A stretch of 62,313 nt of DNA from Patescibacteria group bacterium (GTDB lineage Bacteria; Patescibacteriota; Minisyncoccia; JAHIHE01), in NCBI GenBank assembly GCA_018896765.1, contig JAHILZ010000061.1, forward strand, positions 1 to 62,313, in the 5' to 3' direction. The notes below the pieces were generated by a model, which was not told where the DNA came from, did not search any database, and saw nothing but the letters and a program-made list of their open reading frames with translations. Both the position numbers and the translations under genes were made by a program. Below are positions 2,736 to 39,412 of the stretch, in pieces (position 1 is the first letter of the stretch; each line of letters opens with the position of its first letter).

Positions 2736-4163
2736 CTAATTCATTTTCGCTAACTGTTTAAAACTCTTTGGCTTGTATTTATCCCATTCTTCCTGCTTCA
2801 CATATAGCATTTTATATTCAATTTTTTTCTGTCGTTCGCTTGCATCTTCGCACCACTGCGCCAATCTTTTTATCTTTTCAATATCACCCAGATCCTCCCG
2901 TCCCTTTGTTTCCACAATATAAATAGTTTTATTGTCCGTCTTTACGAAAAAGTCGGGATAGTAACTGGAAATAGCCCCGCTTGCATTTTTATAATCAATC
3001 TTGAAATGAATTTCAAAATAATTTTTTGCGAAAGAAATCACATCGTCAGCGCCTTCTAAAAAGTCGGCAAATTCAAGTTCAAAATCACTATCGCCGACAA
3101 TTTTATTGAATACGCTTTTTTTAGGCAGTAAATATTTTTTATCAGTAACGACAAACAGCCTGGCGCAGCTTACTTTAAGATAATTTTTTATTTCCGTATC
3201 ACCGACATCTTGCACAGTCAGATTATTTATTTCCTTTTTAAATGTTTCCACAATAGTTTTTACTGCTTCCAATTCGGATAAATTTCTCAAAATATTTGCG
3301 TCATTAAGATCAACCCTTTTGCTAAATAAATCATCAGTGATAAATTCTTTTACTTTGCCAAAAAGTATGTCATAGCACCCGAAGAGACGCGGTTCTTTCA
3401 TTATTCTTTGCGCAAAAAATCCAACGACGCTTTGATAATTTGGTTCAACCGCGCTATTTAAAATTGTTGTATGGTGGATTTTATCATCAATCACTTCCTT
3501 AAAAACAATTTCTTTTTTTCTTCCTCGGAGAATTGCTTTACTAAAATCCTTTCATGTTTGAAATCGGCGATATTCAACAAATTAAGGTTCTTGTATTCTC
3601 TTTGAATCCTCGGGGTTAAAACCGGCAATTCAATATCTAAATTTTCAATATCTTTTTTTGCATTATGATTATCAATTTCAATAACGGTCGGCGTAATCGG
3701 CGAGCCGGAACGATCCATTTTTCGTTTTTCCGCTTCCGGTTGCCATTTTTATCACAAAGCGAAGCCAGTCTTCATCAAACATATTCGGCGAAACTCTGCC
3801 AAGTTTATCAAATGGAATTAAATCAAATTTATTTCTCGCTCCCTGAACATCGTAAATCCAAATAATCGTTTCTACCGCTTCTCTTTGCGCGAAATAGTAT
3901 TGGAAGGCGACACTCATCCCGTCTTTGGTAAAAATCGTGTGCGGTTCTTTAAACCACCAATTCAAAAGAGCTTTTGAAGTTTCGTTGGCACCCTCATAAT
4001 TATCCGCCCGCCACTTGGCTACTTTTTCCCGCAATTCCGGCACAAAAGGAGGCAAAAGTTTTTCATAGCCTTCCTTGCGCAAATCTTCCTCAGCAGGAAA
4101 CCACCTGATTGACGGATCAAGAATTTGAAATTTGTCTTTTGGAAAGTTTTTATGCAGTGCCAT
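2736..4163 (-). pseudogene. Disrupted Type III restriction enzyme Res subunit (helicase core missing)
   Basis: Three consecutive fragments in different frames. The N-terminal piece ends just after Walker A (ATGSGKTK). A 75-aa middle piece follows. The C-terminal piece carries the PD-(D/E)xK-like YYPDFFVKTD...IVETKG. Together they total about 500 aa versus about 900 expected; one frame break is near an A8 run at about 3511. Confidence 0.6.
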
Positions 4164-4204: not shown

Positions 4205-4341
4205 GAGAAACAGTCTTTGATATATCATTGCTATAGAAGTATGTAATAATAACTTATAAAATGCTGTGGTATTCCTCCGAAGAATTCGGAACAAAAGCTA
4301 CAAATAAACCATTATATAAGACACTACTTCTAACAAAATCC

Positions 4342-5037
4342 TCAATCGTTTGATTGAGATTTTTGTTTTGGGTATTTTTCATCCCAAATATCTTTGAATA
4401 ATTCCTTACCCGAACCTAAAAGATTATTTTTTAATATTTGATAACATTCGTTACCCAGTTCTTTTTTCTCTAGATATCTTGCCAGCGCTCCAACAATCCA
4501 ATCAGCGATTTGAATATTAACATTCTGCTCTGAATCAATCATTTCAATCTGCACAATAGACTTGCTAGACATTTGTGGCAATAATCTTGCTTTTAATATC
4601 TCTTTAAATTCTGATCTTTTAATTCCTTTTAAGTGTCTTTTGTCGCAAAAAACCCTAAATTCTAAATCATTTATCGGCAAATACATCTCCAATGCTTCTC
4701 CTATAATATTAGTGTATAAATGACCACTTTGTAATTTATCTTTTTTGTAATAATTTTGTGGAATATTTTTTCTCAAAAGATATGCAAAATAAATACGCAC
4801 ATCCAAATCAGCAATAAATTTCAAAGTTTTTAGCCGAAGGTTATCATCAATTTTTATTTCCGAAAATTTAATTTCTGGTTGATAGCGAAGCTTGCGAGGG
4901 AATTTAGTTCTTTGCCATGACCGAAATTGTTTTTCTGTTCTCCTGGAATCTCCAATAATAAAAGAAGCAGCGACAAAATATTTCTCGTTATTATGTTTTG
5001 TAAACTGACCGCTTTCATCAAGAAATATATGAGCCAT
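4342..5037 (-). CDS. DUF3800-family protein
   Basis: 231 aa. N-terminal IFLDESG and C-terminal IQIADWIVGA motifs are typical of DUF3800. Confidence 0.6.
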   Translation of the reverse strand: MAHIFLDESGQFTKHNNEKYFVAASFIIGDSRRTEKQFRSWQRTKFPRKLRYQPEIKFSEIKIDDNLRLKTLKFIADLDVRIYFAYLLRKNIPQNYYKKDKLQSGHLYTNIIGEALEMYLPINDLEFRVFCDKRHLKGIKRSEFKEILKARLLPQMSSKSIVQIEMIDSEQNVNIQIADWIVGALARYLEKKELGNECYQILKNNLLGSGKELFKDIWDEKYPKQKSQSND

Positions 5038-18967: not shown

Positions 18968-19083
18968 TTAAAATTTTGAATTTCCAATTTTGAATTTTGA
19001 TTAAATTTTGAATGTTTGAATGTTTCAAAATTAAATCATTATGTCATTCATTCGAAATTCAGAATTCGAAATTAGAAATTATT
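18968..19083 (+). repeat. AT-rich leader repeat (family A), well-conserved copy
   Basis: Reverse complement of the copies at 35425-35538 and 60006-60127. It ends 14 nt before the ATG at 19097. Confidence 0.7.
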
Positions 19084-19096
19084 AAATAAAGCGCTT

Positions 19097-19351
19097 ATGC
19101 TCTATCTCCTTATCCTCATCCTTCCCTTATTAATTTACACGGTATTGTCCGCAATAATATTATTTCATTTGAAAAAATACGGAATTGCCGGAGATTTTAC
19201 GCGGCAAATAATTATCTTATTTTTTATGGTTTCCGTAATTCTGATTTTCTTTACCGCCTTAAGCTTTTTTAATATTCCATGGGATGAATTAAATTTAGCC
19301 GATATGCTTCAAAATACGCGAAACGATAATCCCTATTTTTATCAGCCGTAA
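19097..19351 (+). CDS. Small membrane protein
   Basis: 84 aa with two predicted TM helices; 19 nt upstream of the next ORF. Confidence 0.4.
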   Translation: MLYLLILILPLLIYTVLSAIILFHLKKYGIAGDFTRQIIILFFMVSVILIFFTALSFFNIPWDELNLADMLQNTRNDNPYFYQP

Positions 19352-19370
19352 AATATTTTACTTTAAAAAT

Positions 19371-19943
19371 ATGAGCATAACAACAATCGTTAATCCCGAA
19401 GAAACAAAAAAAATCACTTTCCCCGGACAATACGAAAACGAGCAAATTCTTTTAGTCAAGCGCCGCCATTGGATAGTTCTTGCGGGATTTATCCTCATGA
19501 TCGCTTTATTAATTTTAGTTCCTATTTTTGTTTATTTTTTTCTGCCTCTGGTCTTTGAGATCCCGAATGCCGAAATTTTTAATAAATTATTTTTATTTAT
19601 CACCTGCCTTTATTATCTATTCCTCTCTGTCATGTCTTTTTTTATGATCATTGATTACTATCTTGATATTTGGATAATTACAAGCCAAAGAATTCTTTCC
19701 GTAGAGCAAAAGGGGCTTTTCCATCGAATTGTTGTTGAAGTAAGATACAGCCAAATTCAGGACATCACTAGCGTTGTTCCCGGCCTTGTTGCCACCTATT
19801 TCCAATTCGGGAATATAAATATCCAAACCGCCGCCGAAAAAGAAAGAATGATGCTGAAACAAATCACCCATCCGGTAGAAACCCGCCGCGTAATCTCTGA
19901 TGCCTATCATAAAGAAATGGAAAAAACGGAAGAAAAAAAATAA
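19371..19943 (+). CDS. Membrane protein with bacterial PH (YdbT/bPH_2-like) domain
   Basis: 190 aa. Two TM helices, then ...RILSVEQKGLFHRIVVEVRYSQIQDITS...NINIQTAA, reminiscent of bPH_2. Confidence 0.5.
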   Translation: MSITTIVNPEETKKITFPGQYENEQILLVKRRHWIVLAGFILMIALLILVPIFVYFFLPLVFEIPNAEIFNKLFLFITCLYYLFLSVMSFFMIIDYYLDIWIITSQRILSVEQKGLFHRIVVEVRYSQIQDITSVVPGLVATYFQFGNINIQTAAEKERMMLKQITHPVETRRVISDAYHKEMEKTEEKK

Positions 19944-20002
19944 AAGTTTAATAACCGAATTCCTTCATAAATCATTCATTCAAATTTATTATATTACAAC
20001 TA

Positions 20003-20030
20003 TTGACAAAACTATTGCTTATAGTATAAT
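20003..20030 (+). promoter_or_regulatory. Sigma-70-type promoter for the Cys-rich mini-ORF
   Basis: TTGACA (20003-20008), 16-nt spacer, TATAAT (20025-20030). The ATG is 13 nt after the -10 element, which implies a leaderless or very short-leader mRNA. Confidence 0.5.
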
Positions 20031-20042
20031 GAGGTTAATCAT

Positions 20043-20141
20043 ATGACAACTATTAATCAAACAAAATTAATTGCCAATACTGCCTGCGCTTGTTGCTGCG
20101 CCGCTATTAAGTCCGGGCAAGTTTTTGTTTTGAGAAAATAA
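20043..20141 (+). CDS. 32-codon Cys-rich mini-ORF (candidate leader peptide or small peptide)
   Basis: MTTINQTKLIANTACACCCAAIKSGQVFVLRK. Four Cys codons lie in 20085-20099. It is flanked by a consensus promoter and a terminator-like hairpin, and is below the ORF-track cutoff. Confidence 0.45.
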   Translation: MTTINQTKLIANTACACCCAAIKSGQVFVLRK

Positions 20142-20168
20142 GTTTTAGATCATATTATTTTTATCAGA

Positions 20169-20197
20169 CTGCCCGGCAAAAGGCGGTTTTTTGTTTT
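20169..20197 (+). terminator. Terminator-like hairpin between mini-ORF and tRNA-Cys
   Basis: CTGCC (20169-73) pairs with GGCGG (20182-86), including one G-U pair, around an 8-nt loop, followed by TTTTTTGTTTT. The 5' arm can alternatively pair with 20113-20119. Confidence 0.45.
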
Positions 20198-20208
20198 ATC
20201 ATTATTAT

Positions 20209-20279
20209 GACGAGGTAGCAAAGAGGCAATGCGGGAGACAGCAGATCTCCTTACGCGGGTTCAAATCCTGCCCTCGTCT
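20209..20279 (+). tRNA. tRNA-Cys (anticodon GCA) with non-canonical anticodon loop
   Basis: Acceptor GACGAGG/CCTCGTC. Discriminator U73. A13:A22 mismatch. Anticodon arm GGAGA-CAGCAGA-TCTCC. T-loop TTCAAAT. The loop contains no U, so position 33 is A and position 37 is G. Confidence 0.75.
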
Positions 20280-20321
20280 TTTAGAAATAAAAACTGCACA
20301 CTAAAATTATAAGGAGGAAAA

Positions 20322-21188
20322 ATGAACGAAAGAGAAATATCAAATAAGGTAATGGGGGTTTTAACTTCCCGAAAGTATGGATTTCACCAAAGGGGAAACG
20401 GGAAAAACGCGCCAAAAAGAAACACACGGGAGTATGAATTTTTCCTCAGGTGTATCGAGGAAAAATTAAGAAAACAAAAACCTGTAGAATTTTTTATTAA
20501 CTTTACAGGCCTTAAAAATTATAATGCCTGCAAATACTACAATCCCGATGAGTCTGAAAAACGCGCTTTCAGTTTTTTGCTAAACATGGCAAAACAAATC
20601 GAAAAAATATATCCTCAAGGCGTCGTTATAAATATAATATCAAACGACGCTCGGGCAATGTTTGCCAACGGCGCAAAAGAAGAAAACTGTAGAATATATT
20701 ACACCGGACTCGAAAAAATGATTAAGGAAAACGAAAGTTTTTCCAAACATTTCAGGCTTTTCCACCTAAAAGATATCTGGCAAAAAGAAGGCGAAGATTT
20801 TTTTTCGCTTCTTAGCCAAACTGTCGCAGAGGTTGAAAAAAACATAGAAAACGATCCGGATTTTCAGGAACTACTTCTCCGAGCAAAAAGAAGCGCAAAA
20901 CCAAACACCCCTGACCATGAACTCAAGCAGGCTGTTGTAAAATTTAAAGCCACTCTTGCAACCGAAAAAGAGCTAAGAATATGGGACAAACATTTTCCAC
21001 ACGCAATTATGCTTAGCTATAGGATAAATCCTGCCTGGGGTCTGCCATTCCTTTTGCCGTGGGCAACAGGCGAAGGCGAAGTTACTCAGCCTTGGCACGG
21101 CTGGTATGACAAAAATACCAACAAGGTAATGACCGTATGGAGGCAAGAAAAGCAAAAAGAGCTACAAAAATGGATGTTTAGGATATAA
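20322..21188 (+). CDS. PvcA/Dit1-family (isonitrile-synthase-like) protein, divergent
   Basis: 288 aa. KPVEFFINF...PDESEKRAFSFLL....IEKIYPQGVVINIISND...YYTGLEKMIKE and C-terminal FPHAIMLSYRINP...TQPWHG parallel my recollection of PvcA (EPIHFILPAFP...PD..E..A..L...Y.PGA...I.SDG; FP.AVRLSIHPQ...TPWHG). A strong AGGAGG lies 6 nt upstream. Confidence 0.5.
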   Translation: MNEREISNKVMGVLTSRKYGFHQRGNGKNAPKRNTREYEFFLRCIEEKLRKQKPVEFFINFTGLKNYNACKYYNPDESEKRAFSFLLNMAKQIEKIYPQGVVINIISNDARAMFANGAKEENCRIYYTGLEKMIKENESFSKHFRLFHLKDIWQKEGEDFFSLLSQTVAEVEKNIENDPDFQELLLRAKRSAKPNTPDHELKQAVVKFKATLATEKELRIWDKHFPHAIMLSYRINPAWGLPFLLPWATGEGEVTQPWHGWYDKNTNKVMTVWRQEKQKELQKWMFRI

Positions 21189-21294
21189 ACCAAAGGCCAG
21201 AATCAAGTTTCGATAAAATTTTCGATTAACGATTCTGGCTAATTTTTTAATCATTTATTTGACTAATTATTTTAATCATTTAACATATAAACAT

Positions 21295-22278
21295 ATGACA
21301 TCACGAGAACGAATCTATAAAACAATGAAAGGAAAACCTACCGATCGAATCCCCGTCTCACTATGGCAACATTTTCCAGATGCAGATCAAACCAGTCAAG
21401 GATTGGCCGATTCTATATTAAACTTTCAAAAAAAGTTTAATTTTGATTTGGTAAAAGTAACACCTGCCAGCGGATATATGACAGAAGCTTTTGGCGGAAA
21501 ATTTATACCACTTAAAACCGGCCTGCAAAAAGGAATCAGGGAATGCGTTGATTTTCCGATCAAGAATCATAACGACTGGAAAAAAATCAAACCAGCCAGT
21601 ATTAACCAAGGGATTTTAAAGCGCGAACTGGAAGCCTTAAAGCTTATTAAAAAAGGTATCGGCAACGATGTACCAATAGTACAAACAATCCCTAACCCTT
21701 TAACTCTTGCGAAAACCATTCGGGGAAAATTATTATTTGATGACCTTAGGAATCATCCTAACGATTTAAAATCAGCCCTTGATGTTATTACGGATACTAT
21801 ACTTACATTTTCCTTAGAATCTTTAAAAGTCAGAGCCGATGGCATATTCTTTTTTACCCAGATGGCAAGTTTTGATTTTCTAACGGAAAAAGAATATCAA
21901 GAATTCGGAGTAAAATACGATTTGCAAATATTAAATAATCTAGCAAAACAAAATGCATTGCTTATACTGCATATCCATGGCTTGAATATTATGTTCGATC
22001 TCCTTAAAGAATATCCCGTACAGATCATAAATTGGCACGACCAATTGACCGCGCCAACGATCGCCGAAGCGCAAAAAATCTGTACAAAAACTTTTATAGG
22101 TGGAATAGAAGAAAATGAAATGTTGTTAAAAGAAAATCCTGAAGTTATCAAAAAACATATAAAAAAATTTATTAACAAAAACAATGGCAAACGATTAATA
22201 TTCGGTCCTGGCTGTGTTTTACCTGTTAATACTCCGGAAATGAATATAAGCGCCATAAAAAAAGCTTTAGAAAAATAA
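21295..22278 (+). CDS. Uroporphyrinogen decarboxylase (URO-D) family protein (MtaA/CmuA-like)
   Basis: About 327 aa from the ATG at 21295. MTSRERIYKTMKGKPTDRIPVSLWQHF... has URO-D family N-terminal and overall architecture. The track start at 21259 is a TTG. Confidence 0.65.
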   Translation: MTSRERIYKTMKGKPTDRIPVSLWQHFPDADQTSQGLADSILNFQKKFNFDLVKVTPASGYMTEAFGGKFIPLKTGLQKGIRECVDFPIKNHNDWKKIKPASINQGILKRELEALKLIKKGIGNDVPIVQTIPNPLTLAKTIRGKLLFDDLRNHPNDLKSALDVITDTILTFSLESLKVRADGIFFFTQMASFDFLTEKEYQEFGVKYDLQILNNLAKQNALLILHIHGLNIMFDLLKEYPVQIINWHDQLTAPTIAEAQKICTKTFIGGIEENEMLLKENPEVIKKHIKKFINKNNGKRLIFGPGCVLPVNTPEMNISAIKKALEK

Positions 22279-26085: not shown

Positions 26086-26419
26086 TTATTTTCCTCCTTA
26101 TTTTCTCTTTTATTATAAGTAATTCATTTTATTTTTTGTTGGATTAAACATCATTATAAAATGGTTTAATCCAAAATAAAATTTTTTACCTATAAAAAAA
26201 TAACTCCGAAAAATCGGAATTATTTTTTTAGAGACAATTGATTTAAAACCCGGCAAACGGCGATTTGCGCGCCGGCGGACAAGACTGAAAATTTAGCGTA
26301 TTTTTTTCTAATGTTTGCCATATTTTTTGATTTTCATTTTTTCACCCTCTAACATTGCATTATACGCTAAGCAAATAATTTGTCAATGCCTCACGCCCTT
26401 GATTATCAACATTTATTAC

Positions 26420-39320: not shown

Positions 39321-39412
39321 AAAATTTATTTACTGCATTAATAGATTAACATGGGATTTTAAAAGTGTCAATGACTTAGACATTCGCAAGCTATGATATG
39401 TATTAAAAAATA

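Follow-up and report, generated by a model that had tools for sequence, protein, structure and literature searches.

A predicted cysteine-specific leader-peptide attenuator upstream of a tRNA-Cys operon in Patescibacteria

A leader locus located directly upstream of a tRNA-Cys gene and two enzyme genes was investigated in contig JAHILZ010000061.1 of a Patescibacteria group bacterium (GenBank assembly GCA_018896765.1); the whole stretch of 62,313 nt is referred to as the window. All of the evidence was computational (sequence comparison, RNA folding, and structure prediction), and it indicated that the region is very probably a ribosome-mediated leader-peptide transcription attenuator specific for cysteine. 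A ribosome-stalling attenuator had been proposed in a preliminary description of this DNA; the proposal was supported in silico, with the same layout in 13/13 leaders and a switch located 1–4 codons past the last Cys codon. This reading is based on the elements seen in the sequence and how well they are conserved, on helices that exclude one another, and on where the switch falls with respect to the Cys codons. That the leader is translated, that transcription terminates at the hairpin, and that the device responds to cysteine are predictions, and read-through upon shortage of cysteine is the direction expected from the geometry. The window was ordinary chromosomal DNA, encoding GroEL, UvrA, RecA, FtsK, RNase J, and TrpRS.

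The leader and its RNA switch

The locus begins with a sigma-70-type promoter at 20003–20030 (plus strand), which consisted of TTGACA (20003–20008), a 16-nt spacer, and TATAAT (20025–20030) and scored 12/12 in the promoter scan. The window had just two perfect TTGACA-N16-18-TATAAT sites, of which this promoter is one. The ATG of the leader open reading frame (ORF) at 20043 was located 12 nt past the -10 box, and transcription was predicted to start at about 20037–38, giving a 5' untranslated region (UTR) of 5–6 nt. The leader ORF (20043–20141, plus strand) consisted of 32 codons (MTTINQTKLIANTACACCCAAIKSGQVFVLRK), and mini-ORFs with a Cys run were found at the equivalent place in all leader-bearing relatives. 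The putative regulatory Cys codons C15, C17, C18, and C19 (TGC, TGT, TGC, and TGC) were located at 20085–20099 (plus strand), starting at 20085, 20091, 20094, and 20097. In six frames of the window, the leader ORF was the only one with at least 4 Cys in 5 codons, while shuffled sequences averaged 0.1 such ORFs; in the long ORFs of the window, 0.66% of the residues were Cys. The promoter, the ATG 12 nt after it, and the ORF with its four Cys codons had all been reported in the preliminary description and were found at the same positions.

Three RNA segments were distinguished, all on the plus strand. The putative segment 1 (20057–20075) paired with the 5' half of segment 2 in the minimum free energy structure of the free leader RNA; in the ribosome-free leader, this pairing would put the Cys codons in an apical loop. 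Segment 2 (20113–20140, CCGGGCAAGUUUUUGUUUUGAGAAAAUA) is the predicted 5' strand of an antiterminator, and segment 3 (20156–20176) its predicted 3' strand, which includes the entire 5' arm of the terminator. Segments 2 and 3 could form 20 pairs in the window, occupying 6/6 bases of the terminator 5' arm. The predicted intrinsic terminator (20168–20197) had a stem of 20168–73/20182–87 with an 8-nt loop, followed by UUUUUUGUUUU; in its core, CTGCC (20169–73) paired with GGCGG (20182–86), followed by TTTTTTGTTTT at 20187–97, and the terminator scan flagged the hairpin at 20166–20189 as a terminator-like site. The complementarity of CCGGGCA (20113–20119) to TGCCCGG (20170–20176) noted in the preliminary description was confirmed, as was the CTGCC/GGCGG hairpin with its U-run ahead of tRNA-Cys.

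In the proposed mechanism, the strong promoter would yield an RNA with its AUG about 5–6 nt from the 5' end, and ribosomes would translate the 32-codon leader. When charged tRNA-Cys is scarce, a ribosome would stall on the four Cys codons at 20085–20099, and its footprint would stop just short of segment 2. Segment 2 would then pair with segment 3 and consume the 5' arm of the terminator, so that the polymerase would continue past this point and transcribe tRNA-Cys together with the DIT1/PvcA-like and MtaA/URO-D-like genes. With ample Cys-tRNA, the ribosome would cover segment 2, the hairpin at 20168–20187 with its U-run would form, and transcription would end near 20190–20197. Since the operon opens with the gene of the cognate tRNA, such a device would in addition adjust the supply of tRNA-Cys by feedback.

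The tRNA-Cys gene begins 11 nt past the U-run of the leader, a gap too short for a separate promoter. An internal promoter-like site at 20130–20158 (10/12) was considered as a tRNA promoter and rejected, since it was not conserved in loci L007, L011, and L013 and since the resulting transcript would start with an intact terminator. Between the tRNA and the two enzyme genes, only weak matches (9/12) were found, in agreement with the earlier statement that these genes have no recognisable promoter. Transcripts of tRNA-Cys and both enzyme genes would therefore have to come from read-through. Analysis with Rfam at a permissive threshold (E <= 10) over 19000–21500 revealed no T-box or riboswitch; over the whole window at the gathering score, the matches were just tRNAs and a DUF3800-V RNA, with no T-box and no riboswitch.

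Contigs of relatives were gathered by means of homologues of the DIT1-like and URO-D-like proteins, together with a genome scan. The search of relatives for the mini-ORF, which the preliminary description had suggested, gave 13 distinct leaders that kept the run of Cys codons, namely the window and 12 further leaders from related Patescibacteria loci (among L001–L021). Each of the 13 had a run of 3–4 Cys codons, a hairpin with a U-run after the ORF, and, close to the ORF, a segment complementary to the terminator 5' arm. No plus-strand ORF of up to 60 aa other than the leader matched the pattern C.?C.?C in the first 15 loci. The leader peptides had 15–32 aa, and their sequences varied widely beyond the Cys run and a short N-terminal motif.

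The 13 leaders could be sorted into four or five designs, the antiterminator and terminator helices of which differed in sequence. Type A comprised the window, L007 (MKNISRTKSNACACCCSAIIAGQVFVLRK), L011 (MESISQTKLIAKIGCVCCCAAMQPGQIFVLKK), L013 (MNIINQTKLIAKIGCVCCCAATMSGQVFVLRK), and L010 (MKIISQAKSIAKISCLCCATAI), with switch helices of CCGGGCA... and ...UGCCCGG. Type B comprised L001 (MIYQIAETCCACLSLLEKRMI), L002, and L014; its switch helices (GGAAAAGAG with CUCUUUUCC) were shared by the leader L019b (MNIKINQICCCCYLISFKKSD), which was listed apart from types A–D. Type C comprised L003 (MKTFQNQICCCCNIL), L018, and L021, with (A)CAGG(C/U) pairing with GCCUG(U), e.g., CAGGC/GCCUG, and type D consisted of L019a (MNYQINQNQNCCVCCETSLRKEAGLIFRN), with GAAAAGAGGCU pairing with AGCCUCUUUUC. 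Even inside type A, the 3' arms of the terminator varied (GGCGG in the window, GCGGGG in L011 and L013, GGGGCGG in L007, and GCGGG in L010). Comparison of the sequences indicates that the helices of the switch were replaced as the leaders diverged, whereas the architecture has persisted in the same register with the Cys codons.

Types A, B, and D had a consensus promoter, the -10 box of which ended 7–13 nt before the ATG (12–13 nt in 6/8), and had no conserved Shine-Dalgarno sequence; the UTR of type C was about 20 nt. TTGACAA and GTATAAT were unchanged across five type-A relatives. In L019a, the distance from the -10 box to the ATG was 7 nt, and its transcript may be truly leaderless. Segment 2 was identical at 32–34 of 34 nt in L013, L011, and L007; for the leader region as a whole, the nucleotide identity was 77–83%, compared with 74–83% for the adjoining coding genes. 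In L010, an early stop codon cut the last 10 codons of the ORF, and the downstream GGGCAAGUUUUGUUUUGAGAAAAUAAG was retained though outside the ORF, which argues that the constraint acts on the RNA. The 7-bp outer helix of L010 showed three changes, all of them C-to-U transitions that preserved G-U pairs.

The effect of ribosome position was modelled by folding the RNA 3' of the ribosome while the A-site was stepped codon by codon, with a footprint of +12 or +15 nt, and by calculating the mean probability of the terminator pairs. In 13/13 leaders, this probability was about 0 with the A-site at or before the Cys codons and climbed to 0.5–0.9 within 1–4 codons past the last Cys. In the window, it rose from 0.0 at Ala20 to 0.8 at Ala21, a switch 2 codons after C19. 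With the ribosome on the last Cys codon, an antiterminator of 14–22 pairs was formed, taking 3–9 bases, the greater part or the whole, of the terminator 5' arm, and this fold was better than the terminator-constrained fold by 1.7–11.5 kcal/mol across the leaders. For the window, in which the preliminary description had proposed to compare the two pairings by energy, the difference was 5.1 kcal/mol in favor of the antiterminator. When the segment between the ribosome and the terminator was shuffled with dinucleotides preserved, 0–3.5% of the shuffles matched the real sequestration in 10/13 leaders; the proportion was 10.5% in L014 and 33.5% in L019a, the terminator of which was very weak.

Points against attenuation and rival explanations

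Several results weigh against cysteine-specific attenuation. The terminator of the window is weak, with 6 pairs including a G-U, an 8-nt loop, and a local hairpin of -7.8 kcal/mol, and the predicted terminators are weak across the leaders (-4.7 to -12.5 kcal/mol). In the shuffling analysis, 14.5% of the shuffles matched the window, which is not significant. There is no Shine-Dalgarno sequence upstream of the leader ATG; a GAGG directly after the -10 box was considered and rejected because it was not conserved. As to compensatory changes, which the preliminary description had proposed to test, the helices were wholly replaced between types with the architecture kept, and formal covariation within the five type-A sequences was not significant (2 double-sided changes, equalled by 71–95 of 500 shuffles); for such a count, five sequences are a small set and these differ too little, and one of them had supplied the structure. 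The N-terminal motif M-x-[YI]-x-I-N-Q common to the leaders argues against independent origins, and the leaders are probably one diverged homologous family rather than independent inventions.

The folding model has to be weighed in the same way, since it presumes that a bound ribosome keeps the RNA on its 5' side from pairing with the RNA beyond, and its result depends on the footprint assumptions. When pairing across the ribosome was allowed, a ribosome at the type-A stop codon still permitted the outer 7-bp helix of the antiterminator. That version of the model gave conflicting results for type A, in which the terminator formed during a stall at Cys19 and the antiterminator with the ribosome at the stop codon, and it was set aside because helices enclosing a ribosome with linkers of 3–5 nt were judged sterically unrealistic, which is an assumption. 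In several relatives, the ribosome-free RNA favored the antiterminator at equilibrium, so that termination would hinge on coupled translation and on kinetics. The fold of 20037–20200 was marginally better than shuffles (z = -1.85). Because of this z value and of the proportion of shuffles that match its antiterminator, the window locus taken alone is suggestive, and it is the comparative data that carry the argument.

Those comparative data also bear on what else the locus could be. The mini-ORF could encode a Cys-rich precursor of a ribosomally synthesized and post-translationally modified peptide (RiPP) or a bacteriocin, or a scaffold peptide, modified by the DIT1-like and MtaA-like enzymes, perhaps with the use of Cys-tRNA, and the hairpin would then be the usual leaky terminator after a precursor gene. 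Such an origin would suit a short Cys-rich peptide that adjoins two enzymes without assigned function, one of which has a structural model weakly similar to aminoacyl-tRNA-using cyclodipeptide synthases, while the other belongs to a type that works on thiols; the short N-terminal motif common to the peptides would fit as well. However, the length and the sequence of the peptide vary, and what is kept is the Cys run and how far it lies from the RNA switch. The peptide of L010 is shortened and yet the downstream nucleotides are conserved, L016 has the enzymes and a tRNA-Cys with no peptide, and the similar ORF in L019a sits before a creatininase-family gene only, while the leader in L021 also fronts unrelated genes. 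No protease, transporter, or known RiPP maturase was found near the leader clusters in the window and the related contigs. A peptide product, which the preliminary description had mentioned as an alternative, is thus not supported and is considered extremely unlikely.

Consensus promoters are typical for tRNA genes, and the strong promoter could be a plain tRNA-Cys promoter with a long, processed 5' leader, in which the ORF would be untranslated and the hairpin would be a partial terminator or a processing structure without any sensing. The ATG without a Shine-Dalgarno sequence and a fold only marginally above shuffles agree with this. It would leave unexplained why a frame starting with ATG and carrying 3–4 Cys codons occurs in 13 differing leaders, given how rare Cys is among the residues, and why the switch boundary follows the Cys codons; in addition, the leaders in L019 and L021 precede no tRNA. 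This explanation is judged improbable. It is likewise most doubtful that the translated leader controls termination while reading the general status of translation (ribosome availability or any slow codons) instead of cysteine. In the model, any ribosome halted before codon 20 would free the antiterminator, and leaderless initiation is itself sensitive to the growth state. Against this, the Cys run is the sole feature at the critical position that is common to all designs, and one of the regulated operons encodes a homologue of L-cysteine desulfidase.

The operon genes and other sites

The first enzyme gene of the operon (20322–21188, plus strand) encodes a DIT1/PvcA-like protein with an isonitrile-synthase fold (288 aa; Pfam PF05141, E = 4e-10) and is preceded by a Shine-Dalgarno sequence, AAGGAGG. 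Its AlphaFold2 model had a mean pLDDT (predicted local distance difference test) of 78 and matched PIsnA/PvcA with a template modelling score (TM) of about 0.55. The next structural neighbours of the model (m05f70c9bf034) were aminoacyl-tRNA-using cyclodipeptide synthases and class-Ic aminoacyl-tRNA synthetases (TyrRS/TrpRS), which were weak matches (E 1e-3 to 1e-2, TM 0.3–0.4); the likeness is suggestive, given the linkage to tRNA-Cys in most clusters. Close relatives formed 5 clusters in 5.8 billion proteins, and 4 clusters at E < 1e-30 were found among 1.84 billion representatives. By these comparisons, the protein is classed as a distant member of the isonitrile synthase family in a rare clade. 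A profile search of genome contigs with the DIT1-like alignment gave no relatives, and a scan of metagenomes re-found the L003/L005 contigs only. Among the relatives, the enzyme partner was either DIT1-a or DIT1-b, which are about 22% identical; word-indexed protein searches with the DIT1-like protein missed the divergent DIT1-b, which was found through its URO-D-like neighbour. In L019, the partner was an unrelated protein of 243 aa, for which no detectable relation to the DIT1-like family was found. Literature searches found no paper on the structure of the isonitrile synthase and its relatives.

The second enzyme gene (21295–22278, plus strand) encodes an MtaA/URO-D-family protein of 327 aa (Pfam URO-D, 3e-32). 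The listed ORF begins at a TTG at 21259, and the homologues begin with MTSRERIY, which corresponds to the ATG at 21295. Relatives of this protein were far more numerous than those of the DIT1-like protein. The best solved relative was the methylcobalamin:coenzyme M methyltransferase 4ay7, with LHIHG aligned to LHICG and GPGC aligned to APGC, and NCBIfam gave MtaA/CmuA-type matches below the cutoff. On these alignments, the protein appears nearer to MtaA than to uroporphyrinogen decarboxylase. The invariant His238-x-His240 and Cys319 of the family align with the H-x-C...C motif of MtaA, which we take to be a zinc/thiol site, and because of this the protein is more likely a metal-dependent thiol or alkyl transferase than a decarboxylase. 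About 75 loci of Chloroflexota, Armatimonadota, and others contained a URO-D-like relative at about 40% identity; none of them had a DIT1-like gene or tRNA-Cys, and their Cys-run ORFs were scattered out-of-frame noise in GC-rich DNA.

The tRNA-Cys (GCA) of the operon (20209–20279, plus strand) was predicted by ARAGORN and matched the Rfam tRNA model with 53.3 bits; it has U73 and no encoded CCA. Its anticodon loop is C-A-G-C-A-G-A, with A in place of U at position 33, G37, and a normal T-loop and D-loop, and the tRNA-Leu of the window has U33. Operon-linked tRNA-Cys genes in relatives were located at 169–240 in L001, about 343–415 in L002, 4853–4923 in L003, about 2349–2421 in L007, about 3980–4052 in L014, 4005–4078 in L016, and 2990–3061 in L018. 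Position 33 was A in L007, G in L001 and L003, C in L002, L014, and L016, and U only in L018; U33 was thus absent in 7/8 operon-linked versions, with a loop of C-N-GCA-R/Y-A in which N was A, G, or C. For the tRNA-Cys of L001, L002, L003, L007, L014, and L018, the Rfam tRNA model fell short of E <= 1, and tRNA-Leu on the same contigs scored 48–54 bits. In L001 (about 215–235), L002 (about 390–410), L007 (about 2395–2415), and L014 (about 4025–4045), the T-arm was replaced by the hairpin GGUGCGAGCACC, (A/G)GGUGC(G/A)AGCAC(U/C)C, which had no T-loop motif, and in these four the D-loop was without GG. The remodelled stem showed one compensatory change from A:U to G:C, which suggests that it is under selection. 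Literature searches revealed nothing on tRNA-Cys without U33 in the Candidate Phyla Radiation (CPR).

In three type-A relatives, L010 (about 1745–1815), L011 (about 4075–4145), and L013 (about 4010–4080), the slot of tRNA-Cys just upstream of the DIT1-b gene was occupied by a cloverleaf RNA of about 69 nt, with a 6-bp 'acceptor' and three arms and with consistent or compensatory changes among the three loci. It had no GCA anticodon and no match in ARAGORN or Rfam, and it may be a degenerate tRNA that was retained to aid processing or stability. Between the leader terminator and this cloverleaf, L011 (about 3745–4060) and L013 (about 3790–4000) carried an insertion of 200–300 nt with the inverted repeats CCCCTCTCTAATTTTGC and GCAAAATTAGGGATGGGG; the insertion resembles a miniature inverted-repeat transposable element or may be a structured element, and it had no Rfam match.

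Operons with a leader almost always include the MtaA/URO-D-like gene. L019 has two Cys leaders (208–360 and 1198–1335): L019a precedes a creatininase-family gene only, and the second precedes the 243-aa protein and the MtaA-like gene. In L021, the Cys leader (1037–1225) precedes a 448-aa homologue of a solved L-cysteine desulfidase (PDB 9fsl, E = 1.4e-26) and a weak DIT1-like protein. No tRNA follows the leaders in L019 and L021. L016 has DIT1-a, the URO-D-like gene, and tRNA-Cys after them, with no leader. The desulfidase homologue, the His-x-His...Cys triad, and the linkage to tRNA-Cys even in the leaderless L016 suggest that the regulated genes are concerned with cysteine, and taken together the clusters suggest that Patescibacteria have a small regulon responsive to Cys, with the MtaA-like gene at its centre and tRNA-Cys as a frequent companion. 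Given the predicted induction upon shortage of Cys-tRNA, the enzymes may serve the supply or salvage of cysteine. A more specific idea is that the attenuator controls a dedicated, non-canonical paralogue of tRNA-Cys which, with the isonitrile-synthase-fold and MtaA-like enzymes, would form a new tRNA-Cys-dependent CPR route that yields Cys-tRNA, cysteine, or a product made from cysteine and that is induced when Cys-tRNA runs short; this is regarded as unlikely.

Three other sites of the window were recorded. The second perfect promoter (TTGACAAATTATTTGCTTAGCGTATAAT), with a spacer similar to that of the Cys leader, was located on the minus strand in an element at 26386–26190. Downstream of it are a Shine-Dalgarno sequence, a Lys-rich ORF of 9 codons (MKIKKYGKH), a structured stretch rich in GC, and a strong hairpin with a U-run that resembles a terminator, all of them upstream of an ORF of 103 aa (26085–25774); the element may be a leader/attenuator or a small RNA and had no Rfam match. 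At 39372–39185 (minus strand), a promoter-like TTGACA preceded a 21-codon ORF (MSKTEIVSTINLKVPAAASCC) ending in two Cys codons, a 22-bp hairpin competing with a terminator (CCCUU/AAGGG with a U-run), and an ORF of 93 aa. In the footprint model, the terminator at this site formed with the ribosome on the Cys codons, opposite to the tRNA-Cys leader; the arrangement may be due to chance or to a different logic. The DUF3800-V RNA (Rfam RF02964, 64 bits) at 4235–4331 (plus strand) adjoins a DUF3800 protein gene at 4342–5037 (minus strand), which is a known association.

Comparison with known systems

The layout shares with the enterobacterial attenuators (trpL, hisL, pheL, thrL, leuL, and ilvL) a short ORF with a run of codons for the regulating amino acid, mutually exclusive helices, and a decision made by the position of the ribosome; in types B and C, a 1:2 helix extending over the end of the ORF is present as well. 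It differs from them in being predicted for cysteine and for Patescibacteria, with nearly no 5' UTR and no Shine-Dalgarno sequence, and in that the cognate tRNA heads the regulated genes, ahead of enzymes outside any known Cys pathway. Firmicutes cysteine T-boxes have the same input (tRNA-Cys charging) and the same output (terminator versus antiterminator), but a T-box binds the uncharged tRNA directly and needs no translation, and the locus had no T-box match. In E. coli, thrU-tyrU-glyT-thrT-tufB is a mixed tRNA-protein operon, in which, as proposed here, the tRNA is co-transcribed with protein genes and freed by processing. We know of no mixed operon of this kind under a leader peptide that reads the same tRNA.

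Three kinds of Cys leader have been described. The uORFC-8-2 motif ahead of cysS in Rhodobacterales consists of a predicted upstream ORF with Cys codons and a terminator stem with a U-run, and was proposed as a sensor of Cys-tRNA (Brewer et al. 2021, PMC8632094). It resembles the leaders studied here in its terminator output, its proposed sensing of Cys-tRNA, and its proposed control of a gene in the supply chain of Cys-tRNA. Its Cys codons are two in tandem and lie within the first stem, while the Cys codons here are upstream of the switch helices; it occurs only before cysS in alpha-proteobacteria and is unrelated in sequence, while the genes here are tRNA-Cys and other enzymes. No cysS was found in the operon or in the window.

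Polycysteine leaderless short ORFs in mycobacteria control several operons in parallel (a 'ribulon'), and their output is reported to be translational, through sequestration of the ribosome-binding site (Canestrari et al., bioRxiv 10.1101/834739). The preliminary description had mentioned a report of such attenuators; their reported output differs from that predicted here, where a terminator hairpin with a U-run is followed by a tRNA gene without a ribosome-binding site. The two systems share short ORFs with a Cys run, leaderless in mycobacteria and predicted to be nearly so here, and a multi-operon logic, and L019 also has two Cys leaders. Actinobacterial candidate Cys leaders have no terminators (Seliverstov et al. 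2005, PMC1262725). The leaders found here differ from these three systems in phylum, in sequence, in the location of the Cys codons upstream of the switch helices, and in the regulated genes, most of all in that a tRNA-Cys gene comes first among them. Literature searches found no described leader-peptide attenuator ahead of a tRNA gene, and they agreed with the earlier statement that no Cys leader had been described before a tRNA-Cys gene or in CPR.

As far as these searches show, this would be the first known attenuated operon that opens with the tRNA whose charging its leader reads, and an attenuator before the cognate tRNA would be a direct feedback loop on the supply of that tRNA. To our knowledge, very few regulatory RNAs are known in Patescibacteria/CPR, and the biology of these organisms rests almost wholly on inference from sequence. 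The leader would provide a well-defined example, open to testing, of how CPR bacteria sense an amino acid through stalled ribosomes, and its diverged versions could serve as natural mutants. It would also give a functional handle on opaque genes, placing the isonitrile-synthase-like clade, the MtaA/URO-D-like protein, the creatininase-family protein, and the L-cysteine-desulfidase homologue in one Cys-responsive regulon, and membership in this regulon suggests how the reduced organisms of CPR may obtain or manage cysteine.

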